Shown here: positions 15,487 to 37,862 of the stretch, piece by piece | Numbering within the stretch: position 1 is the first letter of the stretch | Layout: every line of letters begins with the position of its first letter | Source of the DNA: a virus | DNA: 44,112 bases | Virus genome (UHGV): UHGV-0127376 | Strand: one strand, 5' to 3' | Program-made: the position numbers and the translations under genes | Notes under the pieces: generated by a model | The model's input: the letters and a program-made list of their open reading frames with translations, nothing else | Databases searched by the model: none | Told to the model about the DNA's origin: nothing

Positions 15487-15582
15487 GTAGCTCCCTGGGG
15501 TATCTCTATGGTATCCCGGGGCACTACTTGGGGTGCACGTCTATACCTGGACCTGAAATTTATTAGACTTTAAAATGAGGAT

Positions 15583-16044: not shown

Positions 16045-16405
16045 AACCAAAAATTATTATACTCGCCCTTGAGCCTCCCTCACCCTCAACGACGCCAATT
16101 GCCCCCATAGGGGGTGCCTAGCGCATAAAAGGAGGGGTGGGGTGGGTGCCTAGACGTCTAGACGGCCCTAGGGCGCTCTCTGAGGTGTGGAGCGCCACGG
16201 CAGCTAAGACCGTGGCTATAGCGGAAGCCTCAGAGGGCCTCAGTGGCTCCCTGCGCTGCGCTGGGGCTATCGCTAGTGCTGCCCCACGGCTTGGCCTGTG
16301 CGTGGCACTGAGTGGCTCCTGTGCGCTCTACGGGGCACTAGGGGCTATCCCTGTGCGCTCCCTGTGGGCCATAGGGGTGCGCTCTGCCTTGCTTATTTTG
16401 CGCGT

Positions 16406-16462
16406 CCATAGTGGGCCCGCCTAGTGCCTGCATTGTGGGGCCATAGTGGGCCTGCCTAGTGC
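16406..16462. repeat. Two 22-bp direct repeats CCATAGTGGGCC(C/T)GCCTAGTGC (16406..16427, 16441..16462) with degenerate copies at 16105..16124 and about 16369..16388
   Basis: Read directly from sequence; part of an 822-bp non-coding, repeat-rich zone 16045..16866. Confidence 0.6.
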
Positions 16463-16658
16463 GCTGTAGTGCGTCACGGTGCTATCCCTAGTATGCACTA
16501 GGCTATCCACTGGCTATCCCTAGTGCTTTACATTGTGCCGATTATATGCTACGCTGCGCGCTCCCCACTAGGGCGCACATCCTCACCCAACACTATCCCG
16601 GCGCTATCTCTTTGCTATCCCTTTGCTCTTACTTTCATTCGAAAGCTGTCATGAAATG

Positions 16659-16675
16659 ATGTTACAGGAGTAGGA
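16659..16675 (+). promoter_or_regulatory. Copy 2 of exact 17-mer ATGTTACAGGAGTAGGA (candidate phage-RNAP promoter or other regulatory site)
   Basis: Identical 17-mer also at 5640..5656 and 37846..37862. Confidence 0.3.
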
Positions 16676-16866
16676 GGGTTTTAGGGCACTATATACACAC
16701 TACTTACTACTACTCACTAGTAGTCACTAGTATCCCCTAGTAATGCCCTGTATGACTGACCGTAGGGAGGGAAGCATTACCTAGAATCTTGTAACCTCCG
16801 CTCCTATCCCTCCGGGATATCGTCGCTATGGTTACGCTACTAATCACTATGTAAGGAGATATTGTT

Positions 16867-17283
16867 GTGGCTAGAACATTTAAGATTGTGGTTGATAAGG
16901 AAGGTTATCCAGTGATTAATGGTGCTGGGCCTGAGTATGTGAATAAGCGAGGTAAGAGAGACTATAAGACTGTGGCGCTGCATAGGGCCGTGGTTATGGA
17001 TGCTCTGGGAATCACTAGCTACGGTTCTGGCTATCACGTACATCACTGTGACAGTAACCGCCTTAACTGTGACTTCAATAACCTGATACTGGTTAGCGCT
17101 GACACTCACCGGGCCATACACTTAGCACAGATTCAGGAAGGGAGATGCTTCACAAAGGATGAGTTATTGGCTAGTCCTGAGTACGATACTAACTGGCGAG
17201 AGTTCGACGTGACTTATGGGGACTACAATAGTTTACTGCACGCAGACCTTTGGGGGTCTGCTTACTCTTTTTGCTCCCAGTGA
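16867..17283 (+). CDS. HNH endonuclease
   Basis: Motif YHVHHCDSNRLNCDFNNLILVSADTHRAIH; GTG start with SD AAGGAG 9 nt upstream. Confidence 0.75.
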   Translation: MARTFKIVVDKEGYPVINGAGPEYVNKRGKRDYKTVALHRAVVMDALGITSYGSGYHVHHCDSNRLNCDFNNLILVSADTHRAIHLAQIQEGRCFTKDELLASPEYDTNWREFDVTYGDYNSLLHADLWGSAYSFCSQ

Positions 17284-21794: not shown

Positions 21795-22855
21795 TGTTCT
21801 TGAATCCGCACGGGATTGATATGCAGCTGCTCTTGCAGATACTGCAAACGCACCGGCCTAGCTGGGGTAGCACTAAGTGGTTCGAGCCGCTGCTTATGCA
21901 GTCGCTACAGGCGCTGGGTAGTGGTATGCACTACGTAAAGGACAAGCACGGGAACTACTTCGTGCTGGTGGGGGACTCAGAGCAAAGTGACGTAGCGTTT
22001 ACGTCTCATCTCGACACAGTGGCACGACCAACCAGCGCTGCGCCGGACGTCGGCTGCACTAACAAGGGCGTGCTGTTCGTAAAGAATCCGCAACAAGCTG
22101 ACTGCTTGGGCGCCGACTGCGGCGCCGGTATCTACCTGATGCTGGAGATGCTGCGGCGCGGCGTGCACGGACGCTACTGCTTCTTCGTGGATGAAGAGGT
22201 AGGCTGCGAGGGTAGCGCTGCATCGGTCAAGGATGACTCTGGATTTTGGACTGGGGTCAAGGCGATGATTAGCTTCGACCGCCGCGGCGACGGTATCATT
22301 ACGCATCAAAGGTATATGCGCTGCTGCTCTGACACCTTTGCCAAGACCCTAGCAGAGCGCCTGGGACGCACGGAGCAGCACTTGCAGAAGGGTGTTTATA
22401 CTGACTCGGCTGAGTTCGTTGGCATCATTCCTGAGTGCACCAACGTCGGTGTAGGGTACATGCACGAGCACACCCCGGATGAGGTGCTGGACCTGAACAT
22501 ACTGGGCCAGGTGCTTGAGCGGGTACTACAAGACGGCACGTTCTCGCACCTCCCTATTGAGCGGGACCCGGCAGTAGCAGAGCCAGACCTATGCCAGTGG
22601 CTCGCTGCATCGACGCTCAGTTTACGGCAGCCGTGGGATATGCCGCCGGACGAGGACCCGCAGTTACTGGCCGCGTTCCGGGAAGTATCGCAGCTTTCTA
22701 AACAACAACTGGTTAGCTGGGTACAGGAGAATCCAGAGAAGGCGGCGGAGTACATAATGGTGTTCTCCGATTACGGCTTTAAAGAAGAACTGATTGAACT
22801 AGGCACCCGAGTCGTAGAAGACTGGGGCGGATACGATAATATTGTGGAGGGTTGA
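21794..22855 (+). CDS. Putative Zn-metallopeptidase / amidohydrolase-like protein (M20/M28-type motif order)
   Basis: Ordered motifs SHLDTV, GADCGAG, DEEVGCEGS, SFDRRGDG, HEHTPDE resemble H-x-D ... D ... EE ... D ... H metal ligands of the M20/M28 fold; unverified. Confidence 0.4.
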   Translation: MFLNPHGIDMQLLLQILQTHRPSWGSTKWFEPLLMQSLQALGSGMHYVKDKHGNYFVLVGDSEQSDVAFTSHLDTVARPTSAAPDVGCTNKGVLFVKNPQQADCLGADCGAGIYLMLEMLRRGVHGRYCFFVDEEVGCEGSAASVKDDSGFWTGVKAMISFDRRGDGIITHQRYMRCCSDTFAKTLAERLGRTEQHLQKGVYTDSAEFVGIIPECTNVGVGYMHEHTPDEVLDLNILGQVLERVLQDGTFSHLPIERDPAVAEPDLCQWLAASTLSLRQPWDMPPDEDPQLLAAFREVSQLSKQQLVSWVQENPEKAAEYIMVFSDYGFKEELIELGTRVVEDWGGYDNIVEG

Positions 22856-22857
22856 TT

Positions 22858-23304
22858 ATGTCTAAACTTTTTAAAGTAGGTGATAAGGTTCAGCGCATCA
22901 ATAAGATTGAAGGTAAGACCGTGCGCGGCGAGATAGTCACTAAGGGGCCTGGCCTCTATATAGACATCAAGCTAACCGAAGGCGCAGGGATTCATTATGC
23001 CGGGGATATCTATGGCGGCTCTGCCGACTTCTGGCAGCTAATCGAGGAGGCGGACGAGCTGCCACCGGTTCCGTCTAGTGTAGCATATTTAAACACTAAA
23101 CGAGACCCAGGAAACGACCAGCGGCTGGTATTAGAAAAGGACAGCGAGACTAACGAAGGACTACTATACATCGGAATAGTGCCTAGAAAAGGCAGCACCC
23201 GGGCAGAGCGAGAGATTGGTATTAATATGAGCCCCGATTCAGCCCTGCAGTTGGCACATGACATTCGTCGAATGGCTATGAAAGTTAAGCGAGAGATTCA
23301 GTAA
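22858..23304 (+). CDS. Early/middle protein, unknown function
   Basis: ATG 22858 with SD GGAGG; ORF-track start 22852 is TTG. Confidence 0.55.
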   Translation: MSKLFKVGDKVQRINKIEGKTVRGEIVTKGPGLYIDIKLTEGAGIHYAGDIYGGSADFWQLIEEADELPPVPSSVAYLNTKRDPGNDQRLVLEKDSETNEGLLYIGIVPRKGSTRAEREIGINMSPDSALQLAHDIRRMAMKVKREIQ

Positions 23305-24095
23305 TGGACCAGCCCTGGCTTAGAGCGTGCAAGCGCCTGGCCGTTGGGCAGAGGGCGCGCTTTCGGTGCTGCGGCAGGGACGCCGCCGGGGTGCTCTACA
23401 ATAACCCGGATGCCTGGGAATATTATTGCCACCGCTGCAAACAGGTGGGCAAGGAGCACAAGCAGTACCAGCGCATACAGTTACAGGAAGAGCCGAGGGT
23501 GCAGCCCTCTGCACCTGCAGATGCAATTTGCATTAGCCAAGCGCCTGCGGAAACGCAGAGTTTTCTTTACGGATTCCTGACCACAAAGGGAATCATGCCT
23601 GAAATGGTGGAGGATGCAGAATGGAGCAAAGAGAAACAGCGGATAATATTCCGTGTCGGAAGCGCTGCTCTGGGCCGTGCAGTGCATGCCCGACAGCAAC
23701 CGAAGTGGGTAATGTACGGCCAGCCAATGCCGTTCGCTGCCGCGGCACCTGCCGTAGCGCCGGATGTAGCTGCGGCCGCACCTCTAAAGGTCGTGCTCAC
23801 CGAGGACTATCTATCAGCGATCAAATATCAGCACGCGATTACGAACTACTCTGCAATGAACGTGCAGGCTATAGCTATGCTGGGTACTCGCTTGCCCGTG
23901 CAGTTAAGGGCGTGGCTGATACAGAACAAACCGACAGTGATACTGTCCCTGGATAATGACCAAGCGGGACACTCCGGCGCGGCCATGATACGGCGCGCGC
24001 TACGTCCCTTTATGTCGTGCCACGAAATCTACTACGACGGGGACCCAAAAGAGGCAACAATACAGGAGTTATTAGATGGTATTAGGCGCGTGTAA
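23304..24095 (+). CDS. DNA primase (zinc-binding + TOPRIM)
   Basis: N-terminal Cys motifs (RFRCCGRD ... YCHRCKQ) and TOPRIM-like VLTEDYLSA / ILSLDNDQAGHSGA. Confidence 0.8.
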   Translation: MDQPWLRACKRLAVGQRARFRCCGRDAAGVLYNNPDAWEYYCHRCKQVGKEHKQYQRIQLQEEPRVQPSAPADAICISQAPAETQSFLYGFLTTKGIMPEMVEDAEWSKEKQRIIFRVGSAALGRAVHARQQPKWVMYGQPMPFAAAAPAVAPDVAAAAPLKVVLTEDYLSAIKYQHAITNYSAMNVQAIAMLGTRLPVQLRAWLIQNKPTVILSLDNDQAGHSGAAMIRRALRPFMSCHEIYYDGDPKEATIQELLDGIRRV

Positions 24096-24522
24096 AGAGC
24101 ACAAACAGAAAGGCGGACCAAAGGGTTACGGAAATACCACGTTCAAAGGGCGGAAGATACCCCTGCATAGAAAGGTGTATTGCTCGGCGAACGATATATC
24201 TCCGGAGAGCATAGTGGGGCTAGTTGTGCGCCATAAGTGTGACAACCCGAGATGTATTAATCCCGAGCATTTAGAATTAGGTACGGTCAAGGATAACGTC
24301 CATGACTGTATTGCCAGGGGTAGGGCTAAACGCGGGGTTTCTAAAGGAGAGCATAATGGGTACTCCAAGCTAACGGAGCAACAGGTGGGCTATATCAGGG
24401 AGAACTACAGACGGTACAGCAGGGAGCACGGTATACCGGCTATAGCTGCCAGCCTTGGCGTGAGTGTGTCAGCAGTGCACGGTGTGTTGAAAGCTAAAAC
24501 TTGGAGGTTTAATTGGACCTAA
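24076..24522 (+). CDS. HNH homing endonuclease (paralog family A)
   Basis: Motif VVRHKCDNPRCINPEHLELGT; inserted between primase and helicase. Confidence 0.8.
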   Translation: MVLGACKEHKQKGGPKGYGNTTFKGRKIPLHRKVYCSANDISPESIVGLVVRHKCDNPRCINPEHLELGTVKDNVHDCIARGRAKRGVSKGEHNGYSKLTEQQVGYIRENYRRYSREHGIPAIAASLGVSVSAVHGVLKAKTWRFNWT

Positions 24523-25793
24523 TAGTAGTTAAAGCGATGTGCACGCAGAAGGTGTGGAACCGACTGCGTGAACAGATACCCAAGAGCATGCTAGCGCCGG
24601 ACACAGCGAACCTACTAGACTGGGTGGGGTTGTACTGGAACACGTACCCGGAGCACCAGGAGGTTCAGTGGGATGCAATGCAGAGCATGCTCAATCTCCG
24701 GGCGGGACACCTATCCCGGGAAGAGCGGGTAATCATGGACGAGCTTATGCGGGGAGTACAAGCCGTACCGCAGGATTCTGTGGTGGGGATTGTCCAGACC
24801 CTGAATGAGCTGGCCTACAGCGGAGAGGTGGCGGCGCTGACGCAGCGCTACCAAGACGGCGAGGAGATTGATTACCTACTGGAGATGAAGCACCTACAGC
24901 GCAAATACGGCGATGGTGCTGCGGTGCATGAGTCACTGCTTGAATGGGAGAGCGGTAGTGTTGACGAGATACTTGCCGCGACTGATGAGGGCGGCGGTCT
25001 TAAACTGGGCGTGTTCGAGCAACTCGCTAGCAACATCCGAGGTCTACGTGGCGGGGACTGCATCGCAGTGGCCGCCCCTGTGGACTCTGGTAAAACTAGC
25101 CTGCTTGCTGCTATTGCTGTGGACTTTGCTGAGCAGATGCAGCAGCAGCCGGAAGTATACGGGGACCGCCCGATTCTCTGGCTGGTTAACGAGGGCCCGG
25201 CGACGCGTACAGTGCCGAGGGTATATCAAGCGGCGCTGCACTGGACTCTGGCTGAGATTAAGGACCGGCACAGTAAGCAAGAGTTCGTGCCAGCCTACCT
25301 CAAGAAAGTAGGCAGGGCTGACCGGATTCGTGTTAAGGCTGCGCACTCCTTAACGATGGCGCAGATATCCACGCTCATGGAGGAGATGCGCCCTGCGGTA
25401 ATCATCATCGACATGGTGGCGAACATCCGTGGCGGCACTATGGAGACCGAGCACCAGAACCTCGAGGCGAAATGGCAGGAGCTGCGCATACTTGGGTGCG
25501 AGAACGACTGCGCTATTGTAGGCACTATGCAGCTTTCACTCGAAGGTTACAACATGCTGTTCCCGCCACTCACCGCTATGAAGCAAAGCAAGATTGGTGT
25601 ACAGGGTGCCTTGGACTTGGCGATTATGATGGGATGCTTGGACAGGAACGAGCAACCGCACATGCAAAACGTCCGTGGTATCAGTACTCCGAAGAACAAG
25701 ATGGCACTGTCTGGTAAAGAATCGCTCCTGCAATTCGAGGTGGGATTCGAGCCGGGGCGTTGCCGCTTTGACGAAGGCCAGATTAACCGGTGA
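24513..25793 (+). CDS. Replicative DNA helicase (DnaB-like)
   Basis: Walker A VDSGKTSLL and Walker B VIIIDMV; probable TTG start with SD GGAGG (alternative ATG 24537). Confidence 0.8.
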   Translation: MDLIVVKAMCTQKVWNRLREQIPKSMLAPDTANLLDWVGLYWNTYPEHQEVQWDAMQSMLNLRAGHLSREERVIMDELMRGVQAVPQDSVVGIVQTLNELAYSGEVAALTQRYQDGEEIDYLLEMKHLQRKYGDGAAVHESLLEWESGSVDEILAATDEGGGLKLGVFEQLASNIRGLRGGDCIAVAAPVDSGKTSLLAAIAVDFAEQMQQQPEVYGDRPILWLVNEGPATRTVPRVYQAALHWTLAEIKDRHSKQEFVPAYLKKVGRADRIRVKAAHSLTMAQISTLMEEMRPAVIIIDMVANIRGGTMETEHQNLEAKWQELRILGCENDCAIVGTMQLSLEGYNMLFPPLTAMKQSKIGVQGALDLAIMMGCLDRNEQPHMQNVRGISTPKNKMALSGKESLLQFEVGFEPGRCRFDEGQINR

Positions 25794-25798
25794 CTTCC

Positions 25799-25829
25799 CT
25801 AGCGCCTTCTATGAGGGCGCTATGTAGGT
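25799..25829 (+). promoter_or_regulatory. Hairpin element related to the 18086/18802 elements (TAGCGCC - loop - GGCGCTA TGTAGG)
   Basis: Shares 3' half GGGCGCTATGT with the early-region elements; about 20 nt upstream of ATG 25850. Confidence 0.25.
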
Positions 25830-25849
25830 ACATGGTATGGGAGGGTTAA

Positions 25850-26290
25850 ATGGAAATGAGTGAGTGTATCGACCACGGACGTTCGCGCAGCCTATCCCCA
25901 GAAGGCTACGCCTTGGTAGCTAAACCGGGGGTTAACAGTCGCTGCGTACGCCTGCACAGGCTGGTGCTGGCGGAGAAGTTAGGGGTGCCACTTAAAGCTC
26001 TAGATGGAGTGGTTGTCAGACACACCTGCGACAACCCGCGGTGCATTAACCCAGAGCACCTAATACCCGGAACCCCTGCAGATAACAACAAGGACCGAGC
26101 AGTGCGCGGTCGTAGTGCTAAGCGGGTGCCTAGCCGCCAACGCCTAACCCTTAAAGACTGCGAAGATATCTGCGCAAAGCATATACCTAGGGTTTATGGC
26201 GTCACCCACCTGGCCCGCGAGTACGGCGTAGACGCTAACGTCATATACAAAGTACTAAGAGGAGAGTACCCTTGTCAACAACCAGTATAA
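25850..26290 (+). CDS. HNH homing endonuclease (paralog family A)
   Basis: Motif VVRHTCDNPRCINPEHLIPGT; between helicase and DNA polymerase. Confidence 0.8.
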   Translation: MEMSECIDHGRSRSLSPEGYALVAKPGVNSRCVRLHRLVLAEKLGVPLKALDGVVVRHTCDNPRCINPEHLIPGTPADNNKDRAVRGRSAKRVPSRQRLTLKDCEDICAKHIPRVYGVTHLAREYGVDANVIYKVLRGEYPCQQPV

Positions 26291-28686
26291 TGCACATAGA
26301 TTTAGAGGTTCAAAACCATGAATATTACGGCTCTAAAGCAAGCCCATACTGCCCTGACAACTATGTTGTTGAGTCAGCATGGCGTATCGACACGACACAG
26401 GCTGACGGTACTACCACTGTTGGCGCGACTCAATCGGTGCGCTTCAATTCAAGAGCTGATTTCTTGGCGGGAAACAGTGCAGCAGAAGGCTGCCGGTGGT
26501 TTCATATCCCCGAGGATTGCTGGCTTATTGTTGCGCACAACGCAGCCTATGAGATTTCTTGGTTTCTCACGTACCAGCGACAGCAGTTTGAAGCCTTCCT
26601 CAAGCGCGGCGGCAGGGTGTTCTGCACAATGCACGGTGAATACATCGCCTCGGACTTTCAGAGCATGTATCCGTCATTGGACGAGACGGCTCCTAAGTAC
26701 GGCGGTACGCACAAAGTAGACGGGGTTAAGCTTCTGTGGGAGCAGGGTGTGCTAACCTCCCAGATTGACCCGATGCTGCTACATGACTACCTGGTTAACG
26801 GGGACATCCCGAACACGGCCCTGTGCTTCTACGGCCAGTGCGCTACGTTCGCCCAGCGCAATCAGATGCAGTACGTGTGGGAGCGTATGGATGCCTTGCT
26901 GGCTTGGGCGTACTGCGAATGGTTCGGCCTGTTCGTGAATATGCCAATTGCACGCAAGAACCAGGAGGAGCAGGAGCAGCGCATCCGTGAGATTAAGCAG
27001 GAACTGCAGCAGTACATCCCGAAGGACTTGCCGGAGACGCTGGACTTCAATTTCGGGTCGGACTTTCATATGTCTGCACTGGTGTACGGCGGGCCTATAA
27101 AGTACCGCAAGAAGGTCCCCTATGACCCTCCGCAGTACGTCAAGGCCGACTACTATAAGTACGAGGACGAAGATGGTGCGCACACCTATATACCTGTACA
27201 CGACACGCACATGCAAGAACTTCAAACGGAAGGCGGATGGTGGCGTGTAGTGACATATCGTGCGGGTAAGAACAAGGGGCTCCCTAAAGTATTCCGCCTC
27301 GATACCGAGGAAGAGAAACTTAAATGGGAAGACGACCTTTACTTCTGCCCGGGCCTAGTGAACATCCAGGAGCTTCCGGAAGTTATCCGGGAGAAGTACG
27401 CAGAGCGCGGGGAGTTCCGACAGGCGCGCACCCTGCAGGATGGCACCCCTGTGTATAGCACCAGCACTGATGCAATGGAGGCGCTGGCTCGCCAAGGGTT
27501 CGAGTTCTGTAAGTTGGTGAACGAACTGGCGGCGCTGGAGAAGGATACCGGCACTTACTATTTGCGAGAAGTACTGGACGCAGAAGGTAATGTAAAAGAG
27601 CGGAAGGGGATGCTGCAGTATGTAATCCCGGAGCGTCCCGATGGTTCCGGCATCATTCACCACCGGCTGAATACTTGCGCCACCGTAACCGGGCGCTTGA
27701 GTAGCTCTAACCCGAACCTGCAGAACCTACCCCGCCCGGATGAGGATGGCGACGGTGTGGCTAAATCCAAGGTGAAGCAGGTGTTCACCAGTAGATTCGG
27801 GGACAACGGACGTATCACTGAGGTTGACTACTCGGCACTGGAAGTGGTTATGTCCTGTGTACACACGGGTGACAAGAAACTGCTGGGACTGCTGCAGAGT
27901 GGTACGGATATGCACTGTTACCGCCTAGCTTTCCGCGAGGGATTACCGTATGAAGAAGTATATGAGCGCTGCCACAACAAGAAGCACGAGCTGCATCCGC
28001 TTTGGAAGGCAATGCGTACAGGTATTAAGGCTCCTAGCTTTGCAGCCCAGTATGGCGCTACGGCTAAGGGGATTGCGTTTGCTACTGGATGTACGGTGGA
28101 ATTTGCACAGGCTTTCTTGGACAACGAGGCTGCGCTGTTCCCGCAAACAATTGGCTTCCGCGCTGTTGTCAAGGAAGAGGTAGAACGTACCGGTGCGGAG
28201 GGGCGCATGTACCGGGAGCAGGCTGACGACGGCAGCTACCGAATCTACCGCATTGGGACGTGGACCAGCCCAGCCGGTGCCCGCTACAGTTTCCGTCAGA
28301 AAGAGCAGTGGAAAGAGGTTGTGCCTGGGCAGCGTAAGCAGAAGGTAATGGACTACAAGGAAACAGAGATGGCTAACTACTGGTGCCAGGGGGAAGCATT
28401 CTTCCTGATGGCGGTAGCCGCCGGTATGGTTCTGCGTGCACTCCTGGCCCGTGACTGGTTCGACAATCAGGTGTGCCTGATTACGAACGTGCACGATGCG
28501 TTGTATCTGGACAGCGCCAACCCGGAGGTTGGACGTGAGGCGAGCCTGCTGGTTAAGCAGTGCATGGAGGATGCACCTAAGCGTATTCACCAGCTCTGGC
28601 CTAACTACGGCATCATTGGTGAGGTCCCGTTCCCAGCAGAGGCTGAGATGGGTACGAGTATGTACAGTAAGGAGAAGGTAGAATGA
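26272..28686 (+). CDS. DNA polymerase (family A, T7 gp5-like)
   Basis: Exo motif HIDLE near N-terminus; polymerase motifs TGRLSSSNPNLQNLP and NVHDALYLD; start may be ATG 26290 rather than TTG 26272. Confidence 0.9.
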   Translation: MSTTSIMHIDLEVQNHEYYGSKASPYCPDNYVVESAWRIDTTQADGTTTVGATQSVRFNSRADFLAGNSAAEGCRWFHIPEDCWLIVAHNAAYEISWFLTYQRQQFEAFLKRGGRVFCTMHGEYIASDFQSMYPSLDETAPKYGGTHKVDGVKLLWEQGVLTSQIDPMLLHDYLVNGDIPNTALCFYGQCATFAQRNQMQYVWERMDALLAWAYCEWFGLFVNMPIARKNQEEQEQRIREIKQELQQYIPKDLPETLDFNFGSDFHMSALVYGGPIKYRKKVPYDPPQYVKADYYKYEDEDGAHTYIPVHDTHMQELQTEGGWWRVVTYRAGKNKGLPKVFRLDTEEEKLKWEDDLYFCPGLVNIQELPEVIREKYAERGEFRQARTLQDGTPVYSTSTDAMEALARQGFEFCKLVNELAALEKDTGTYYLREVLDAEGNVKERKGMLQYVIPERPDGSGIIHHRLNTCATVTGRLSSSNPNLQNLPRPDEDGDGVAKSKVKQVFTSRFGDNGRITEVDYSALEVVMSCVHTGDKKLLGLLQSGTDMHCYRLAFREGLPYEEVYERCHNKKHELHPLWKAMRTGIKAPSFAAQYGATAKGIAFATGCTVEFAQAFLDNEAALFPQTIGFRAVVKEEVERTGAEGRMYREQADDGSYRIYRIGTWTSPAGARYSFRQKEQWKEVVPGQRKQKVMDYKETEMANYWCQGEAFFLMAVAAGMVLRALLARDWFDNQVCLITNVHDALYLDSANPEVGREASLLVKQCMEDAPKRIHQLWPNYGIIGEVPFPAEAEMGTSMYSKEKVE

Positions 28687-28904
28687 GTATAAAGTCTGGC
28701 AGTGTTGTGGAGTTGATGGACCTGGGGCCTGAGCCGATAGACCCGCGGTATGCAGCATACTTCGCCCCGGGTACGAGGCACACGGTTATGTTCTTCGACC
28801 CGGTTACTGGGGAGATAGAACTAAGTTATCCTGGACTAGTAGTAAGTAGACCGGGGGATGGTGTTACCTTCTTCCCGGGGGAGTACAAGCTTATCGTGGA
28901 ATAG
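28683..28904 (+). CDS. Hypothetical small protein
   Basis: 73 aa ORF overlapping polymerase stop (ATGA). Confidence 0.5.
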   Translation: MSIKSGSVVELMDLGPEPIDPRYAAYFAPGTRHTVMFFDPVTGEIELSYPGLVVSRPGDGVTFFPGEYKLIVE

Positions 28905-29065
28905 TGATAGGTGGACCCTTGGGTGGTGTAGGGGGTTAGGGTAGCATGGAAATACACTGGGGTCAACTAAATAATTAAATAAAATTATTTGTTGACTCTA
29001 GCTTGATTCTGTGATTCATAGAGAATTAATGTGATACGAGTAGGAACAACACAAGAGGGTACCGA

Positions 29066-29504
29066 ATGTCGATGTGTATTGACCACGGGTATAACAAATG
29101 CCTTAACAAGAACGGATACCGCCGGGCATGGTATAAGCCGACCAGGCGATTGGAGCTGCTGCATCGGGTGGTGTATGCTGAGCATAACGGGCTGGATATA
29201 AGGGCGCTGGCTGGCCTGTCTGTTAGACATACCTGCGATAACCCCAGGTGCATTAACCCTAAGCACTTAGTATTGGGTGGGAACGCATATGGATAATATG
29301 CGGGACCGTGCAGAGCGCGGAAGGAACCCAGATGTGCGTGGGGATAGGAACCCAAAAGCGCAGTTAACTTGGGATGCTGTGCAGGATATCAGGGATAACT
29401 ATATCCCATACAAGAAAGGTATGCGGCAACACTTTGCTAATAAGTACGGTGTAGGTGTACATGTAATTAGTGACGTAATAAGTAACAGGAGCTGGAATGC
29501 CTAA
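29066..29504 (+). pseudogene. HNH homing endonuclease (paralog family A) interrupted by a +1 frameshift in a G-run near 29276..29281
   Basis: ORF 29066..29296 (..VRHTCDNPRCINPKHLVLGG) and ORF 29277..29504 (GTHMDNMRDRAERGRN..) align in series with the intact paralogs (..HLIPGTPADNNKDRAVRGR..); removing one G restores a 146-aa protein. Confidence 0.6.
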
Positions 29505-30477
29505 GTTAAACACAATAAAGCTATTCACCAAAGAGCAACACATAGATATCTTGAGCAAGCACAGCTCTAACGTGGATGCTGCTGCCGCCTATAATAAGCT
29601 GGCGGGACTGGACGAGCCAGTGGTGTATCGACAGATGGTGAAGTACTGGCGCAGCATATTCCTAGACCACGCTGGGAGCAAGGGTAAGGCAATATCCCAC
29701 ATGAAGGAGGCACTAAAGCTCATACAGCCCAGTCCCACTGATGACATCGGCAAAACCTTCGTGCCGGAAGTGTGCCACCGTATTCTCGTAGTTGGGGATT
29801 TGCATGCCCCCTATACGCACGTAGATGCTATGGCCTTCTTAGAATCTGTGCGAGACGCCTACTGTCCGGACATGGTTGTACAGGTAGGCGACGAGACGGA
29901 CGGCCACGCTATATCATTCCACGAAAGTAACCCGAACCTGGATAGCGCCGGGGTGGAGCTGGAGAAAGCTAAGCTCGTACTGGAGGAGCTACATGAACTG
30001 TTCCCGAACCTATTGGTTTGCGATTCCAATCACGGCAGTCTGGTTTACCGCAGGGCGAAAGCTCACGGGCTACCAGTGCAATTCATCAAGAAGTACCGAG
30101 ATATACTTTTCCCTGAGCATGGTGCCCCGGCGTGGTCTTGGGCTGACGCATGGGTACTCAATACCCCACTTGGCCCGGTTAGATTCCAGCATCAAGTGTC
30201 GGGCGATTTCATGCTCAATGCCAGCCACGAAAGAACCAGCCTTGTACTTGGCCACGAACATGGCCGCTTTGAGGTGCAATATGCAGCTAGCTCAACAGCT
30301 CTGTACTTTGGTGCGTACGCTGGGTGTCTGATTGACCGCAAGAGTATGGCCTTTGCTTACGGCAGACTCACTCGCAAGAAACCAATCCTGGGTGTGATGG
30401 TAATCACCGAGGGTTGCCCGCAGTTAATTTCGATGCTGCTTGACGACGATGGTCGTTGGGTTGGTCGTACTAAATAA
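29497..30477 (+). CDS. Calcineurin-like metallophosphoesterase
   Basis: Motifs VVGDLHAPY (GDxH), GDETDGH (GDxxD), CDSNHG (NH), LGHEHG (GHxH) in canonical order. Confidence 0.7.
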   Translation: MPKLNTIKLFTKEQHIDILSKHSSNVDAAAAYNKLAGLDEPVVYRQMVKYWRSIFLDHAGSKGKAISHMKEALKLIQPSPTDDIGKTFVPEVCHRILVVGDLHAPYTHVDAMAFLESVRDAYCPDMVVQVGDETDGHAISFHESNPNLDSAGVELEKAKLVLEELHELFPNLLVCDSNHGSLVYRRAKAHGLPVQFIKKYRDILFPEHGAPAWSWADAWVLNTPLGPVRFQHQVSGDFMLNASHERTSLVLGHEHGRFEVQYAASSTALYFGAYAGCLIDRKSMAFAYGRLTRKKPILGVMVITEGCPQLISMLLDDDGRWVGRTK

Positions 30478-30490
30478 CACAGAGGTGATG

Positions 30491-30658
30491 ATGAAAATGG
30501 GAATCTGTTCTGTACTGGGCCTTATCTTTGTAACCTTGAAACTGACTGGCGTTATCGCCTGGTCCTGGTTGTGGGTGCTGCTCCCGTTCTGGGGGCCTAT
30601 GGCACTCGGCGTAATCCTAGTGTTCTTGGCGGTGGCCCTCAAAGCTGCCTCCCGCTAA
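30491..30658 (+). CDS. Small membrane protein (two predicted TM helices)
   Basis: Hydrophobic 55-aa product; SD AGAGG 5 nt upstream of ATG 30491 (ORF-track start 30440 lacks SD). Confidence 0.5.
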   Translation: MKMGICSVLGLIFVTLKLTGVIAWSWLWVLLPFWGPMALGVILVFLAVALKAASR

Positions 30659-30709
30659 GCCCTGCATCTGCACGTAAATATCATTCAAACTAAACGAGGA
30701 AGTAATTAT

Positions 30710-31498
30710 ATGACGATGAATGCACTGGACACCCTGAACTCCCTGGTAGCGGCTGCTATTGAAACGCAGGATGTTGATATGACTGAAACCGCACAGGGCG
30801 GTGCGTATGAGGACGTACTGCTGCCGAAGGGTGAGTACTACGGTTACTTCACTGAGTATGTAGAAATCGGTAAGCGCCTGCCGACTAAGGGCGGTAAGCC
30901 GACCGGTAAGCCTGCAGTGGCTAACGTACGCATCGGCATTGTAGTGTTTGGCCCTAACGGTGAAGTGAAGCGTATCCGTCCGTTCCCGATGGCTATCAGT
31001 AACTTTGAGCGCGCAGGCTTCAAGAAGTTCTTCGACAAGCTCAACTACGACAATAGCATTAAGCATGCGGCACAGCGCCTGGGCCAGGCCTTCACCTTCC
31101 CCATTGATGAGCACACCAGCGCCGCGGGCAAGAAGTCCAACATCGCGGACCTGTCCGGTATCCGCCCGATTCCGAAATTCGACCCGAACACTGGCGAGCC
31201 TATCAAGATGCCTGCCCTGGATGCCTCTGAGATTAAGCTGTTCCTGTGGAACAACCCAACCAAAGAGACCTGGGATAGCCTGCACATCGAAGGCACCTTC
31301 GACGATGGTAAGAGCAAGAACTGGATTCAGGAGGATATGTACAAGGCTGTAGACTTCCCTGGCAGTGCTCTGGATATTCTGCTGAACGCTGGCTCGGTTC
31401 CTAGTCCGGCGGCTATGCAGGCACCCGCAGCCCCGGCTGCACCAGTGGCCCCTGCAGCCCCTGTGGCGCCAGCAGCACCCGCCGCACCTCAAGCCTAA
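30710..31498 (+). CDS. Hypothetical protein with Pro/Ala-repeat C-terminal tail
   Basis: 262 aa, SD GAGGAAG, strongly biased codon usage; C-terminus PAAPAAPVAPAAPVAPAAPAAPQA. Confidence 0.6.
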   Translation: MTMNALDTLNSLVAAAIETQDVDMTETAQGGAYEDVLLPKGEYYGYFTEYVEIGKRLPTKGGKPTGKPAVANVRIGIVVFGPNGEVKRIRPFPMAISNFERAGFKKFFDKLNYDNSIKHAAQRLGQAFTFPIDEHTSAAGKKSNIADLSGIRPIPKFDPNTGEPIKMPALDASEIKLFLWNNPTKETWDSLHIEGTFDDGKSKNWIQEDMYKAVDFPGSALDILLNAGSVPSPAAMQAPAAPAAPVAPAAPVAPAAPAAPQA

Positions 31499-31551
31499 TC
31501 AACCCTAACCTAAACTAATACGGCCCCTCCTAGGGGCCTTAGAGGAAGCCT

Positions 31552-31806
31552 ATGAACATCATCAAGATTCTCATCAAACTCCTGAGCGCAGCCTACACAG
31601 CAGAAGCTAAACGCGCCGATGCCAAAGCGCAGTTTAACGAGCAGTTGTCAGTTAAATTCGCAGACGACGCAGTGCGTCTGGCCGCTCAATCCGAGGCGCG
31701 CGTAGAGGCATCCAAGCATAGCAAAGAGTTAGCCGAGGCGTGCGCTTGCCATGCTGATAACCTGCGCGCTAAGCGTGATGAAGTAGCTAACTTCCTGGAG
31801 GTATAA
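31552..31806 (+). CDS. Hypothetical protein
   Basis: 84 aa ORF with SD AGAGGAAG. Confidence 0.5.
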   Translation: MNIIKILIKLLSAAYTAEAKRADAKAQFNEQLSVKFADDAVRLAAQSEARVEASKHSKELAEACACHADNLRAKRDEVANFLEV

Positions 31807-32085
31807 ATGCGCATAATCACATGGGCCAAAGAACAGTACGCTGTGTTTCTGCTTCTGCGTGCACAGCGTTTGCAGAAGCGAGCAAACGACTGGCACCGGG
31901 CAGCTAATTCTCACGCACACAGGGCAAGCCTTCTGGGTGCCGAGATTAGCGCACACCGCTATCACTTGACTCGCCAGTGCGCCAAGTCCCGACGCCGTGC
32001 ATACGCCCTGGGTGCAGAGGCTACGGCCACTGAGACCAAAGCCCACAATTTCATTTCAAAACACAAATTGAAAGGATTTGACTAA
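31807..32085 (+). CDS. Hypothetical protein
   Basis: 92 aa ORF with SD GGAGGT; basic. Confidence 0.5.
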   Translation: MRIITWAKEQYAVFLLLRAQRLQKRANDWHRAANSHAHRASLLGAEISAHRYHLTRQCAKSRRRAYALGAEATATETKAHNFISKHKLKGFD

Positions 32086-32459
32086 TGGACAAAGTACTAG
32101 ACGCATACAAGAAACTGGTTCTGGCTGTAGGTTACGTGAACTGTAGCGCCGTTCAAGGTTTCGACAATGGTGACCAGCTCGGCGCTGTGTACGATGCTCT
32201 GGACAAGCTGGCGGCCCTGTACGGCATGGACCTGGAGTTGGCTGCTACCGCCTTCAAGGAGCACAATGACCTGGCGGCACATGCCGATAAGTTACGGGGT
32301 GATGACCTAGTGCTTATCCGCATTGTGGGTACCCTAAGCATCGGGCTGGCGGAGATTGGTTCCTGCATCTACGACGTAGACCAGAGCCTGCGTACCACGG
32401 AAGTAATCGGGGACATGCTTGGCACCGTGTTGGTGCTATCTGAACTGGAGGGTATATAA
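32085..32459 (+). CDS. Hypothetical protein
   Basis: 124 aa ORF with SD AAAGGA, start overlaps previous stop. Confidence 0.5.
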   Translation: MDKVLDAYKKLVLAVGYVNCSAVQGFDNGDQLGAVYDALDKLAALYGMDLELAATAFKEHNDLAAHADKLRGDDLVLIRIVGTLSIGLAEIGSCIYDVDQSLRTTEVIGDMLGTVLVLSELEGI

Positions 32460-32620
32460 TGCGTAAATTTATATCCTACATAATTTCAGTCCCAGCACTG
32501 GTACTACTTGCAATCAGCTTGATGCTAATGGCGCTGGCGCTCAGTGTAGCCGGAGGCTCTAAGGGCGTGGCTATGCTGGGCCGTGCAATCCATGCTTTTA
32601 CTGACCACTTAAAGGTGTAG
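32459..32620 (+). CDS. Small membrane protein (53 aa, MRKF...), first of tandem pair
   Basis: ATG overlaps upstream stop; single TM helix; below ORF-track cutoff. Confidence 0.45.
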   Translation: MRKFISYIISVPALVLLAISLMLMALALSVAGGSKGVAMLGRAIHAFTDHLKV

Positions 32621-32623
32621 AGA

Positions 32624-32785
32624 ATGCGTAACTTCTTTGCAAAATCATTTTACTTCCTGTTAGTAGCCCCGCTAGTGCCTGTAGCTATCCTGTGCTGGGC
32701 ATTTGAGAAGGTAGAAAACAGTCAGGCGCTGACCGCCTGGGAATCCTGGGCGCGTAAGTTGACCAAGAAGGTTACGGGGGTCTGA
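32624..32785 (+). CDS. Small membrane protein (53 aa, MRNF...), second of tandem pair
   Basis: Starts 4 nt after previous stop; same length and architecture; stop overlaps exonuclease start. Confidence 0.45.
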   Translation: MRNFFAKSFYFLLVAPLVPVAILCWAFEKVENSQALTAWESWARKLTKKVTGV

Positions 32786-33753
32786 TGATTATCAACGGGG
32801 TTGACTTGTCCCAGCTCGGGGAGCAGTTAGCTCCGCAGAACTCTGGGAAGATTCTGCTGTACGACGCGGATTTCACAGTTTATAAATCTGCTGCTACAGT
32901 GAAACGTTTGGATACCGCGATACGCCGCTTCTATCAGCTGGTGCTTGAGGACATGTTCCTGGTCGGCTGCTCAGAAGCAGTGGCGTATCTGACGCCTACG
33001 GGGTGTGCTAAGTGCCTGCGCTGGCACCTGCCTACGGCTAAGCCGTACCAAGGGAACCGCAATAAGCGTCAGGAGCTGCCACTCAAGGCACCGTTGAAGC
33101 GGCACCTGATTGAGAACCCGGACCAGTATTCTGAGCATGGCATACAAGTGGTAAGCAGTGACTACTTCGAGGCGGATGACCTGTTCATAATGGATTCGTA
33201 CAGCTTCGGGGACCGTGGAATCCTGATGTCTCAGGACAAGGACTCCTGGCTCAGCCCTATGGCCCGGTTCGATATCCCAACCGGAACCGTATGGCCTGCC
33301 TTGGATAACCCCTTCGGATGGATTAAGTGGGATGATACCCAGGCTATGCCGGTACGAGCGCATGGCACTAAGTTCTTCTGGTGGCAGATGCTAGCAGGAG
33401 ATGACGCAGATAACGTCAAAGGCATCACATTGCTTGATGGGAAGCTCTGTGGGAAGCGAACGGCCTTTGATGCTATCTACCCTATTACCTCAGAGCAGGA
33501 CGCCGCAGAATTCGTTGTAGCGGCTTACGCTCGAAACAACCAAGATGTACTCGCAGAGGCAGAATGCCTGTTCCTGCGGCGCTCCCCGTCAGATTCAGCG
33601 TACCTGTATCTGATGTCACTGTTGACTACTCCCAGTCTGCGTGACTGGGTGCATTCGCTGCACGAGTACCATAAACAGCATATACAGTGGATACAGGAGC
33701 ACCCAGACAATGGCGAAGATGTCTGCGAAGGAAATGAGCCTGCGGGCGATTGA
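32785..33753 (+). CDS. 5'-3' exonuclease (T7 gp6 / FEN-like)
   Basis: ILLYDADFTVYKSAAT, YFEADDLF, SQDKDSW and KGITLLDGK align with conserved acidic motifs of T7 gene 6 exonuclease. Confidence 0.8.
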   Translation: MIINGVDLSQLGEQLAPQNSGKILLYDADFTVYKSAATVKRLDTAIRRFYQLVLEDMFLVGCSEAVAYLTPTGCAKCLRWHLPTAKPYQGNRNKRQELPLKAPLKRHLIENPDQYSEHGIQVVSSDYFEADDLFIMDSYSFGDRGILMSQDKDSWLSPMARFDIPTGTVWPALDNPFGWIKWDDTQAMPVRAHGTKFFWWQMLAGDDADNVKGITLLDGKLCGKRTAFDAIYPITSEQDAAEFVVAAYARNNQDVLAEAECLFLRRSPSDSAYLYLMSLLTTPSLRDWVHSLHEYHKQHIQWIQEHPDNGEDVCEGNEPAGD

Positions 33754-33910
33754 GTTATACTACGAGGGGAAACATGATGAACTTGAAACTATTCTGGTTG
33801 CGCTGCGTGAACGAGCACCCAAAACACATCGAAGAACGGTTGAGCATTTGGATTCTCTCATTCACGACAATGCTCTGCTGGATGTAGTTGGGGAGATTGA
33901 GGTATGGTAA
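33710..33910 (+). CDS. Hypothetical small protein
   Basis: ATG 33710 with SD AGGAG upstream; overlaps the exonuclease 3' end in another frame (ORF-track start 33641). Confidence 0.4.
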   Translation: MAKMSAKEMSLRAIELYYEGKHDELETILVALRERAPKTHRRTVEHLDSLIHDNALLDVVGEIEVW

Positions 33911-34371
33911 GTTGGGTGCCGCTAGTTAACGGCAGAAAAGATTACTTGGTAAATGATAATGGGGAGATAACAGGACCATCCGGCAAAGTGTTGAAACCTG
34001 CTCGACAGGGTGGCGGTTATCTGTATGTAAACACTAGCCCTAAGAACGTCTATGTGCATAGGGCTGTTGCTGAGGCCTTTGTACCTAATCCACACAATCT
34101 GCCAGAAGTTAACCACATAGACGGGGATAAAGAAAACAATAGAGCCGGCAATCTAGAGTGGGTCACTAGGCGCTCTAATGTAATACATCAAGTGGACAAC
34201 GGACTACACTGTAAAGTTAGACTATGCCCGGATACTGTACGCTATTTGCGGACGATGTATTTACCAAGAGACAGAGACTGGGGTGTATCTGCAATCGCGC
34301 GTAGATTGGGTATGTCTAAGGCAGCAATAGGTTTGATGCTACAGGGGGCAACTTGGCGACACGTCGAATAA
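33904..34371 (+). CDS. HNH homing endonuclease
   Basis: Motif EVNHIDGDKENNRAGNLEWVTRRSN (HNH_3-type); between exonuclease and endonuclease VII. Confidence 0.8.
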   Translation: MVSWVPLVNGRKDYLVNDNGEITGPSGKVLKPARQGGGYLYVNTSPKNVYVHRAVAEAFVPNPHNLPEVNHIDGDKENNRAGNLEWVTRRSNVIHQVDNGLHCKVRLCPDTVRYLRTMYLPRDRDWGVSAIARRLGMSKAAIGLMLQGATWRHVE

Positions 34372-34775
34372 CTAGAGGACAGGTAAGGGCGGTATCATTA
34401 AAGATACTAAAGGAGCAGGGGGGTGTCTGCGCCCTTACTAAACGTCCTATAGATACCTCTGCCGCCCGCGGAAGCGCCAGCAGTATGGTACTAGATCACG
34501 ACCACCTCACTGGGCGTATACGCGGAGTGCTGTCACGCGGAGCGAACGGCGCAGAGGGTAAAGTGTATAATGCCGTAGCCAGGTGGGCTGGTTACGGTAT
34601 GCAGGACAAGGAGGGGATACTGCAGTTCTTGGAGAACATGGTGGCGTACCTCCGTAAAGAACCGTACGATTTGCTTTATTACACGCACCGCAGTCCGGAA
34701 GAATTGGCGCAGGCACAGAAGCTCAAGGCCCGCAAGGCCCGGGCACGACGTAAAGCACGGGAGACTATTAAATGA
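34353..34775 (+). CDS. Endonuclease VII-type Holliday junction resolvase
   Basis: Motif VLDHDHLTGRIRGVLSRGANGAEG matches the T4 endo VII signature (DHDH-x-G-x-RG-LC-x-CN); only in-frame start is TTG 34353. Confidence 0.8.
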   Translation: MATRRITRGQVRAVSLKILKEQGGVCALTKRPIDTSAARGSASSMVLDHDHLTGRIRGVLSRGANGAEGKVYNAVARWAGYGMQDKEGILQFLENMVAYLRKEPYDLLYYTHRSPEELAQAQKLKARKARARRKARETIK

Positions 34776-35227
34776 GTAATATTAAAGTTGGTGATGTGGT
34801 AGTTCGTAAAGCTACGCACGTGTCGGGTGACTGGTCTCGAATCTGCGAGTCTCTTCATATCTCCCCATACGCCTCCAGGGGGGTGCTTGAGGTTAGTGGC
34901 ACCACAATTACACTAAGCGGAGACCTAGCTGGCGGTTGGCGCGCGGACTACTTCCATGTAGTGGGGGAAGTCCCCATAACCAGCACACAAGCGCCCGACG
35001 CAGTGAACTCACCCAAGCACTACCAGTTCTTCCCGGACCTGGAGGCAATTGAGGTGATTGCACGCAGTATGACGAAAGAGCAGTTCTACGGATACTGCCT
35101 GGGGAACCGGCTCAAGTACAGACTGCGCGCCGGGAACAAGGATAAGCTGGAACAAGACATTGCCAAGTCCGACAAGTACTCAGAACTATACGAGCAACAC
35201 AGAGGTAAGTGCATTGACGCCAAGTGA
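34772..35227 (+). CDS. Conserved phage protein, DUF3310-like motif
   Basis: SPKHYQ ... EAIEVI ... GNRLKYRLRAGNK ... resembles the HY / KY-R-G-K signature recalled for DUF3310; family name unverified. Confidence 0.5.
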   Translation: MSNIKVGDVVVRKATHVSGDWSRICESLHISPYASRGVLEVSGTTITLSGDLAGGWRADYFHVVGEVPITSTQAPDAVNSPKHYQFFPDLEAIEVIARSMTKEQFYGYCLGNRLKYRLRAGNKDKLEQDIAKSDKYSELYEQHRGKCIDAK

Positions 35228-35368
35228 GTGGTGCCACGGGATGTGGCAGAAAGCAGTAGAGCGGGGAGACGAACGCGCCGCTAAAGACTACCTGGAGATG
35301 TACAATCTCTGGGTAAGTCGCAATCAGTAGTTAGAAGTACCGGACATAACCAAGGAGACTAAGCGCCT

Positions 35369-37837: not shown

Positions 37838-37845
37838 AAAATTTA

Positions 37846-37862
37846 ATGTTACAGGAGTAGGA
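37846..37862 (+). promoter_or_regulatory. Copy 3 of exact 17-mer ATGTTACAGGAGTAGGA, abutting the start codon of the first gene after RNAP
   Basis: Identical 17-mer at 5640..5656 and 16659..16675; here it also supplies the SD (AGGAG) for ATG 37863. Confidence 0.3.

Follow-up and report, generated by a model that had tools for sequence, protein, structure and literature searches.

The seg and mob genes of phage T4, for example those for SegF, SegG and MobE, are free-standing homing endonuclease genes of the T-even phages. I-HmuI of Bacillus phage SPO1 (PDB 1u3e) is encoded in a group I intron of the DNA polymerase gene, and I-PpoI is encoded in an intron of eukaryotic nuclear rDNA. HNH genes of the HK97 gp74 type are conserved, lie beside the terminase genes and are needed for packaging. 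In the T7 gp7.7 family, T7 itself has three such genes, 2.8, 3.8 and 7.7 (bioRxiv 10.1101/2025.09.07.674715), as compared with six in the genome described here, and it was noted earlier that homing endonuclease content differs between close Drulisvirus phages (PMC7013548).

The stretch of DNA analysed (the window, 44,112 nt) is the circularly permuted genome of a KP34-like Klebsiella podophage (genus Drulisvirus). The initial annotation had listed six HNH genes, and the ORF starts at 15583, 16867, 24076, 25850, 29066 and 33904 were confirmed (Table 1). The ORFs are small and free-standing; five have intact reading frames and one has a broken frame. All six match Pfam HNH_3 (PF13392) at 29.6-78 bits, the gathering cutoff being 24.8 bits, and also match PHROG HNH families. 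Each is placed between core genes without an intron or intein, and the genes flanking the HNH slots are uninterrupted in relatives. None of the six adjoins the terminase genes (9564-11722) or is conserved across relatives, which sets them apart from the HK97 gp74 type. The count of six is high for the Drulisvirus group but not unique: OU509534 has six HNH genes inside the 17-kb replication module alone, and KpV475 and KpV41 have none in that module, with all four slots empty. A search with all lineages known from relatives revealed no extra HNH remnants in the window. One candidate remnant at 28612-28683 was rejected, as it is the C-terminal tail of the DNA polymerase, which resembles the end of an HNH ORF in RCIP0106. 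The six genes are very probably free-standing homing endonuclease genes, that is, selfish mobile genes located between essential genes and not in introns, and they are typical of that class, belonging to the T7 gp7.7 family with an I-HmuI-like fold. This kind of system is already known, and no new kind is revealed. The four genes of the replication module are referred to below as HNH-A to HNH-D, in slots A to D.

Table 1. HNH genes of the window and the associated features, in order of position.
Feature	Position	Strand	Basis
HNH_3 endonuclease gene, 153 aa	15583..16044	+	Pfam HNH_3, 78 bits
HNH_3 endonuclease gene, 138 aa, GTG start, early region	16867..17283	+	Pfam HNH_3, 31.1 bits
Primase 3'-end allele linked to HNH-A	23800..24075	+	Sliding identity among relatives
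HNH-A, endonuclease gene, 148 aa, primase/helicase slot	24076..24522	+	Pfam HNH_3, 33.1 bits
HNH-B, endonuclease gene, 146 aa, helicase/DNA polymerase slot	25850..26290	+	Pfam HNH_3, above cutoff
Substitution cluster, 5' end of DNA polymerase gene	26296..26316	+	8-9 substitutions in 21 nt
Resident promoter-like region upstream of slot C, outside mobile DNA	28947..29042	+	Conserved in HNH-less relatives
HNH-C, frameshifted endonuclease gene, DNA polymerase(+73-aa ORF)/phosphoesterase slot	29066..29504	+	N-terminal fragment: Pfam HNH_3, 29.6 bits
TGGGTGGG, 4-nt tandem duplication of TGGG	29274..29281	+	Alignment with five relatives
Phosphoesterase 5'-end allele linked to HNH-C	29505..29900	+	Sliding identity among relatives
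HNH-D, HNH_3 endonuclease gene, 155 aa	33904..34371	+	Pfam HNH_3, 42.7 bits
Endonuclease VII 5'-end allele accompanying slot D HNH genes	34372..34680	+	Sliding identity among relatives

In all four slots, flank differences separate endonuclease-bearing from endonuclease-less alleles and could be a basis for self-immunity: in slots A, C and D the HNH gene is accompanied by a distinct allele of a neighbouring gene, and in slot B it lies beside a 21-nt patch. In slot A, homology with HNH-less relatives is broken over 24057-24502. The 3' end of the primase gene is 92-100% identical to that of HNH-A genomes and 55-75% identical to that of genomes lacking HNH-A, while 5' of 23800 identity is 82-100% in all genomes compared. 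The primase allele was found at an identity of at least 95% in 17 records, 11 of which have a megablast match to HNH-A, partial and split in the case of cp48; the HNH-A check in this tally covered all but four sister phages of PWKp1. VLCpiA1b combines the primase allele with an HNH-A that is 89% identical at the protein level, and PWKp1 combines it with an internally deleted HNH-A remnant. In slot C, the 5' end of the phosphoesterase gene is 85-100% identical in HNH-C genomes and 45-82% identical in genomes without HNH-C, with 42-60% protein identity between alleles over codons 1-80. By megablast this allele occurs in 14 records, all of them among the 17 HNH-C carriers. HNH-D lies between the ORF following the exonuclease gene and endonuclease VII, and homology with relatives stops at 33907. 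The 5' end of the endonuclease VII gene shows 78-100% identity with HNH-D genomes and 29-65% with others, and the alleles share 34-54% protein identity over codons 1-105. Twelve records carry the allele, six of them with HNH-D; the two HNH-D-less carriers that were checked, RCIP0014 and VLC4, have another HNH lineage in slot D. The genes found in slot D have a common C-terminal domain and differ in nuclease type. A seventh nuclease gene in the window (34353-34775; Pfam Endonuclease_7, PHROG endonuclease VII) is annotated in every relative examined and stands outside the HNH set.

HNH-B takes the position of a 51-aa ORF present in KpV475. Against KpV475, KpV41 and KpV71, codons 3-9 of the DNA polymerase gene differ at 8-9 positions and the following 31 codons at 0-1 (Poisson p 2e-10 to 2e-6). 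All five HNH-B-bearing sequences have this patch, and the alternative patch adjoins HNH-B in 0 of 27. The patch is not exclusive to HNH-B genomes, because two IMG/VR contigs carry it without HNH-B, and that reading was rejected. It is predicted from these alignments to be a target or immunity patch for HNH-B.

From the comparative pattern we infer cleavage, target sites and homing of the following kind. Each protein combines an N-terminal His-Me-finger (HNH) nuclease with a C-terminal helix-turn-helix DNA-binding domain. On co-infection with an HNH-less relative, the endonuclease would nick or cut that phage's DNA at a defined position within the adjoining gene. The predicted sites are, for HNH-A, the 3' end of the primase gene; for HNH-B, the first DNA polymerase codons; for HNH-C, the 5' end of the phosphoesterase gene; and for HNH-D, the 5' end of the endonuclease VII gene. 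Repair by recombination with the endonuclease-bearing genome would then bring in the HNH gene and, with it, the flanking cleavage-resistant allele. The flanks in slots A, C and D are old alternative alleles, since they differ by 40-66% at the protein level, and their linkage to the HNH genes could be ordinary modular block recombination instead of endonuclease-driven co-conversion. Only tentatively can it be suggested that the HNH genes are the main engine of mosaicism in the replication module, dragging 300-400-nt divergent alleles of primase, phosphoesterase and endonuclease VII between lineages, perhaps with nuclease domains swapped onto slot-specific DNA-binding domains. If this were true, five active copies would amount to a weapon set that excludes several markers of co-infecting relatives at once.

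HNH-C reads as 29066-29296 (76 aa) followed by 29277-29504 (75 aa, +1 frame), and is not intact because the TGGG tandem duplication shifts the frame directly after the HL(V)LG motif, parting it from the downstream D-N and the DNA-binding half. The N-terminal fragment matches zf-His_Me_endon at 27.8 bits. The duplication is missing from RCIP0044, RCIP0106, RMN1, KpV71 and OU509534, and its removal from the window sequence gives a 144-aa protein. HNH-C is probably a pseudogene, and its inactivation by a 4-nt duplication is consistent with the decay phase of a homing cycle. An assembly or sequencing error, with the gene intact in the actual phage, is unlikely. The alteration is short, it lies within a G-rich stretch, and the database homologues are intact at 427 nt in 17 of 17 records; however, a 4-nt tandem duplication is atypical of homopolymer errors, precisely this 76-aa truncated product has been recorded in four contigs (the longest of 44,195 nt), although these possibly derive from the same underlying data, and such genes also decay in relatives.

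The intact frames of the other five genes would also be expected if the endonucleases were kept for the benefit of the phage, through interference competition against co-infecting relatives or through anti-defence, and were not purely selfish. GAPS4 defence was weakened by homing endonucleases from a BASEL phage and from T7 (gene 3.8) that were catalytically dead, and interference competition mediated by homing endonucleases is cited in the same work (bioRxiv 10.1101/2025.09.07.674715). Because catalytically independent roles have been reported there, a purely selfish role is not established. On the other hand, each gene occurs in just 3-11% of relatives, decayed copies recur, and sequence features do not tell benefit from selfish spread. 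We consider benefit to the phage an improbable reason for the presence of these genes, and one that is compatible with homing and does not exclude it.

By whole-genome comparison, some relatives have the HNH genes and others do not, as expected of mobile, insertion-type genes and unlike ancestral, syntenic ones. Breakpoints are clean at the ORF edges. HNH-A was found in 11 records, HNH-B in 8, HNH-C in 17, HNH-D in 10, the 15583 gene in 27 phage records (by megablast) and the 16867 gene in 16, out of approximately 235-287 related GenBank records; the frequency per gene is thus about 3-11% of ~235, in counts that are limited by the sensitivity of megablast and by phylogenetic dependence among the records. 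Among the records listed, the maximum overlap with the window set is three of the six genes. The 15583 gene follows the tail-fibre gene at the genome's natural right end, and positions 15570-16025 have no counterpart in RCIP0106, which also carries approximately 175 nt in place of positions 16723-17257. It is improbable that HNH genes were ancestral in the Drulisvirus replication module and were lost from most lineages without active mobility. Decay is real, since HNH-C is frameshifted in the window, cp48 has a split copy and PWKp1 a deletion remnant, but the six genes assort independently, a single slot may house three or more unrelated HNH lineages, and the same lineages are found in Escherichia phages. 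RCIP0106 is 98.5% identical to the window over 28.6-33.9 kb, yet lacks HNH-A and HNH-B and has another lineage in slot D. In addition, four of the six HNH genes have a GC content of 46.6-49.7%, below the 54.0% of the whole genome.

The genes at 24076, 25850 and 29066 had been described as a family of three paralogs with a near-identical core and similar C-terminal halves, in separate slots of the replication module, and repeated homing or duplication within the genome had been suggested. Their placement in separate slots was borne out, and they form one subfamily apart from the other three HNH genes, with a common core R-H-x-C-D-N-P-R-C-I-N-P-x-H-L and a common C-terminal helix-turn-helix half. 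HNH-A bears a His-Cys-box-like motif, and its core, RHKCDNPRCINPEHL, reads RHKC with a K and not, as first given, RHTC with a T. In a 46-sequence alignment of the HNH-B family, H58, N62, H70 and N79 are fully conserved and N80 almost fully. Near-identity is confined to the core motif; outside it, the pairwise identities are 33%, 42% and 47%. In contrast, each of HNH-A, HNH-B and HNH-C is 90-100% identical to its same-slot counterparts in other Drulisvirus phages, and the slot-specific clades show 90-100% identity within and 30-50% between them. In a tree, the three copies group with same-slot genes of other phages and not as a clade of their own. HNH-B is closer to proteins of Pectobacterium phages MA2 (64%) and PP90 (57%) and Acinetobacter phage Abp1 (52%) than to its genome-mates. 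The slot identities and these outside matches therefore point to three old lineages, each specialised for its slot and acquired separately, and not to within-genome duplicates. Despite the shared core and domain layout, it is hardly credible that one endonuclease gene duplicated or homed recently inside this genome. That reading is unsupported because over 110 database clusters stand nearer to the HNH-B protein than its genome-mates do, and relatives have one or two of these genes in varying combinations.

The suggestion that the HNH genes carry their own regulatory elements did not hold, as the DNA that distinguishes the four replication-module slots from those of HNH-less relatives begins just 0-17 nt 5' of the start codons. 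The HNH genes have no room for a promoter of their own. A Shine-Dalgarno-like sequence precedes each of them, and their ends overlap adjacent genes: HNH-A shares 20 nt with the end of the primase gene and 10 nt with the start of the helicase gene, and for HNH-D the shared stretches are 7 nt with the ORF before it and 19 nt with the start of endonuclease VII. Scans of 22800-35400 gave no excess of sigma-70 sites (6, against 9.4 in shuffled sequence) or of terminators (9, against 9.9). Exact KP34 RNA-polymerase promoters are located at 5638, 16657 and 37844, none of them within an HNH cassette; the second (16657-16672) is upstream of the 16867 gene. Two promoter-like elements lie 5' of slot C, at 28947-28975 and 29027-29042. 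Positions 28947-28967 match a promoter annotated in KpV475 with one mismatch, and 29027-29042 match the KP34 strong promoter with three mismatches (PMC6834552). They were rejected as elements of HNH-C itself, since this flank is conserved in HNH-less relatives. The HNH genes would be expressed as passengers within resident operons, each with a ribosome-binding site of its own and with stop and start codons that overlap.

Members of Drulisvirus are commonly isolated with Klebsiella phage therapy in view, and they are frequently combined in cocktails. If the homing endonucleases are active, co-infecting members of a cocktail would cut and convert each other, with altered gene content and possibly a biased winner. 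The comparative pattern yields testable target predictions, the clearest being the first DNA polymerase codons of HNH-less phages, and a well-sampled phage genus here shows gain, neighbour-allele linkage and decay of homing-type genes.

Among known systems, I-PpoI (PDB 1a73, 1a74) was recovered by Foldseek at E 0.3-0.8, which is not significant; only one of three window proteins reached the 27-bit cutoff of zf-His_Me_endon (PF05551), and the gene context of I-PpoI differs from that of the window genes. By sequence, HNH-B matched no PDB chain even at E 10. The window proteins have the layout of I-HmuI, a nuclease core followed by a C-terminal helix-turn-helix DNA-binding domain, but I-HmuI is intron-encoded whereas the window genes are intergenic, and the window catalytic core has Cys residues in a His-Cys-box-like arrangement. 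T7 gp7.7 is of the same family as the window proteins, aligning with 92% of HNH-B at 35% identity (E 1e-12), and is likewise encoded by a small ORF of similar size in a T7-like phage genome, although its slots and probable targets are not those of the window genes; a literature search found no biochemical target data for T7 gp7.7. The T4 seg and mob genes are similar in being small endonuclease ORFs between essential genes, with a patchy distribution among close relatives, sequence differences in adjacent genes, and an expected spread in which the endonuclease-less allele is cut and the flanks are co-converted. They differ in that the Seg proteins are GIY-YIG enzymes, whereas the window proteins are of the HNH_3/His-Me-finger type and are carried by a T7-like podovirus of Klebsiella.

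In a database search the 22000-35000 region of the window matched 287 phage records, of which 234 are from Klebsiella phages; the top matches are 90-96% identical. The annotated relatives KpV71, KpV475 and KpV41 belong to the Autographiviridae, Slopekvirinae, genus Drulisvirus (KP34-like phages). Comparison with KpV71 showed that the genome is circularly permuted in the window; its natural ends lie at ~16100-16800, where the terminal-repeat region maps, between the HNH genes at 15583 and 16867. This places the former gene at the right end, behind the tail-fibre gene, and the latter in the early region. All six ORF starts listed by the initial annotation as HNH endonuclease genes were found, and each of the six ORFs scored above the Pfam HNH_3 cutoff and matched PHROG HNH families. 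The set is a real, well-defined feature of a known kind. Four of the genes (HNH-A to HNH-D) occupy positions in the replication module that are here called slots A to D, and by their sequence the window holds five apparently intact HNH copies and one decayed copy.

The genes were found in some relatives and absent from others, with homology breakpoints at the ORF edges in slots A to D (local BLAST, 15 fetched relatives). Per-gene megablast counts were set against the roughly 235 records in which the adjacent primase segment has a match. There was little overlap between the six record lists: OU509534 has three of the six genes, and the other listed records have at most two. The replication module of KpV475 and KpV41 contains no HNH gene, while that of OU509534 contains six in 17 kb. 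RCIP0106, which is 98.5% identical to the window over 28.6-33.9 kb, has neither HNH-A nor HNH-B and carries a different HNH gene in slot D. That homing endonuclease content differs between close Drulisvirus phages has been mentioned in passing (PMC7013548). An HNH ORF also follows the DNA polymerase gene of RCIP0106 (L002, 17778-18257), its final 17 residues matching the C-terminal tail of the window polymerase (28612-28683); it appears to have been inserted within the polymerase 3' end and to have taken over the tail of the polymerase. The 73-aa ORF that follows the polymerase in the window (28683-28904) exists as two alleles (50-72% and 85-100% identity over 28680-28860), whose linkage to HNH-C is not strict. 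A further mosaic patch, at 34800-35000 within the 5' part of the nucleotide kinase gene (34772-35227), has only 30-65% identity to almost every relative examined, with 68-88% to KpV475, and no HNH gene adjoins it in the window.

HNH genes of the window, their occurrence among related records, and the identity of linked flanking segments to relatives with and without the HNH gene
Gene	Start	Slot	Homology breakpoints	Records with megablast match	Linked flank	Identity, with HNH	Identity, without HNH
HNH-A	24076	A, primase/helicase	24057-24502	11	primase last ~280 nt, 23800-24075	92-100%	55-75%
HNH-B	25850	B, helicase/DNA polymerase	25833-26277	8 (match over at least 80% of gene)			
HNH-C	29066	C, upstream of phosphoesterase	29058-29622	17	phosphoesterase first ~400 nt, 29505-29900	85-100%	45-82%
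HNH-D	33904	D, upstream of endonuclease VII	33907 to about 34658	10	endonuclease VII first ~300 nt, 34372-34680	78-100%	29-65%
15583 gene	15583			27			
16867 gene	16867			16			

HNH-A, HNH-B and HNH-C had been proposed to be paralogs with a near-identical core, arising by repeated homing or duplication within the genome. A shared core was confirmed, although HNH-A reads RHKC and not RHTC, and pairwise alignment gave overall identities of only 33%, 42% and 47%. A neighbour-joining tree that combined family members of the window, its relatives and outside phages resolved about ten tight clades, each restricted to one slot, with 90-100% identity inside clades and 30-50% across them. Slot B alone has three HNH lineages, and the three copies of the window fall into three separate clades. 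In the alignment used for the tree, HNH-B is 32% and 43% identical to its genome-mates, below its identity to HNH proteins of Pectobacterium phages MA2 (64%) and PP90 (57%) and Acinetobacter phage Abp1 (52%), and more than 110 database clusters are nearer to it than the best in-genome paralog. Judged by sequence, then, the three genes are not duplicates.

The decayed copy is HNH-C; its split into 29066-29296 and 29277-29504 had been missed. The gene measures 431 nt, compared with 427 nt for homologues in relatives, and alignment with five relatives traced the difference to a tandemly duplicated TGGG, giving TGGGTGGG, at 29274-29281. Without the duplication the gene would encode a 144-aa protein with 99-100% identity to the RCIP0106 and RCIP0044 proteins. 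The frameshift falls directly after the HL(V)LG motif, which leaves the 76-aa product without the conserved Asp-Asn that lies downstream and without the entire DNA-binding half. An identical truncated product is recorded from four contigs, which may have common source data; this makes a one-off assembly error slightly less likely.

A sliding-window comparison of the window with each relative was used to measure flank identity at slots A, C and D (table). On its helicase side, slot A is conserved in all genomes. Database-wide, the phosphoesterase allele of slot C occurs in 14 records, all of which are among the 17 HNH-C carriers. The primase allele of slot A was found in 17 records at 95% identity or above, and 11 of these have a megablast match to HNH-A; the match in cp48 is partial and split, the gene being in two pieces of 71 aa and 95 aa (L005, 4172-4686). 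Also with this allele are VLCpiA1b, whose HNH-A protein shows 89% identity, and PWKp1, which has an internally deleted remnant (L016, 1476-1617): ~41 nt from the start of the ORF and ~110 nt from its end are left, and window 24117-24408 is missing. Of PWKp1 and its four sister phages (PWKp2, PWKp3, PWKp7 and PWKp9B), PWKp1 was the one checked for a remnant. Twelve records have the endonuclease VII allele of slot D; HNH-D is present in six, and of the other six two were examined (RCIP0014 and VLC4), both having other HNH lineages there. With 40-66% of protein positions differing, the slot A, C and D alleles are old alternatives and not recent point-mutation patches. Block-wise recombination with no role for an endonuclease could be the source of part of this linkage.

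At slot B both flanks share 98-100% identity with HNH-less genomes, apart from a 21-nt stretch at the 5' end of the DNA polymerase gene. The helicase-polymerase junction reads ATGCACATTGACCTGGAGACGGAGAACCATG in KpV475 and KpV41 and ATGCACATAGATTTAGAGGTTCAAAACCATG in the window allele. The end of the HNH-B ORF runs through the former polymerase start (ATGACAACCAGTATAATG to TCAACAACCAGTATAATG), and the polymerase must therefore start at TTG 26272 or ATG 26290. The 21-nt patch (26296-26316) contains 8-9 substitutions, followed by 0-1 over the next 93 nt, a clustering with a Poisson p of 2e-10 to 2e-6, varying with the background rate. All five HNH-B-bearing sequences examined have the patch, and an upstream HNH gene was found in none of 27 sequences with the alternative patch (five fetched relatives and 22 IMG/VR contigs). 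In two further IMG/VR contigs (L020 and L021) the HNH-B-type patch goes with an intact polymerase start codon and no HNH-B; such resistant alleles may be in circulation independently of the endonuclease. The patch appears to be needed for HNH-B carriage, yet is not limited to carriers, and is probably a resistant form of the HNH-B recognition or cleavage site. P0009, an HNH-B homologue (73% identity), starts with MTTSIMHID, the N-terminus of the DNA polymerase (compare window 26272-26300), which suggests that in its phage an HNH gene was inserted just inside the polymerase start. The two remaining slot B lineages are carried by cp48/mtp6 and RMN1/phi1_066009 (L005, L006, L007, L015), in which ~350 nt of the polymerase 5' region is only 40-80% identical to the window (26280-26640).

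It had also been suggested that the HNH genes may carry their own regulatory elements, an idea that gained no support. In slots A to D, DNA found only in HNH-bearing genomes starts 0-17 nt ahead of the start codon. All four genes have a Shine-Dalgarno-like sequence and overlap adjacent genes at their start or stop. Scans for generic promoters and terminators found no excess over shuffled sequence. Exact matches to the strong form of the experimentally defined KP34 RNA-polymerase promoter, T(A/G)ATGTTACAGGAGTA (PMC6834552), were located at 5638-5653, 16657-16672 and 37844-37859, and a match with three mismatches at 29027 lies in flank common to HNH-less relatives. The match at 5638 sits within a large ORF (4895-8593). 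With so little specific DNA, such overlaps and no extra promoters or terminators, we consider HNH-A to HNH-D to be passengers of resident transcripts.

Recent work suggests that proteins of this kind can also weaken host defence without relying on catalysis (bioRxiv 10.1101/2025.09.07.674715), and the HNH proteins of the window might possibly do so. Taken together, the findings agree with the standard life cycle of free-standing homing endonuclease genes, in which a specific slot would be invaded by an endonuclease gene, a resistant allele of the neighbouring gene would be carried along, and the endonuclease gene would then decay and be lost. Cleavage, target sites and homing are what we infer from these comparisons.

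At least four HNH types occur in slot D (including VLC4, L019 749-1195; RCIP0014, L018 716-1195; window 33904-34371). Only the C-terminal 74 residues are common to HNH-D and the VLC4 protein (49% identity), and the nuclease half of the latter resembles His-Cys-like lineages, a pairing that looks like domain shuffling. This pattern hints that DNA-binding domains are slot-specific and nuclease domains exchangeable. A search of the PDB with the HNH-B sequence gave no match, and Foldseek with an AlphaFold2 model of HNH-B (46 homologues, mean pLDDT 86) ranked I-PpoI top, below significance. By tblastn the HNH-B family was found in 519 phage records and includes T7 gene 7.7 (35% identity, E 1e-12), and in the model the layout of HNH-B, a nuclease core plus a DNA-binding domain, looks like that of I-HmuI.
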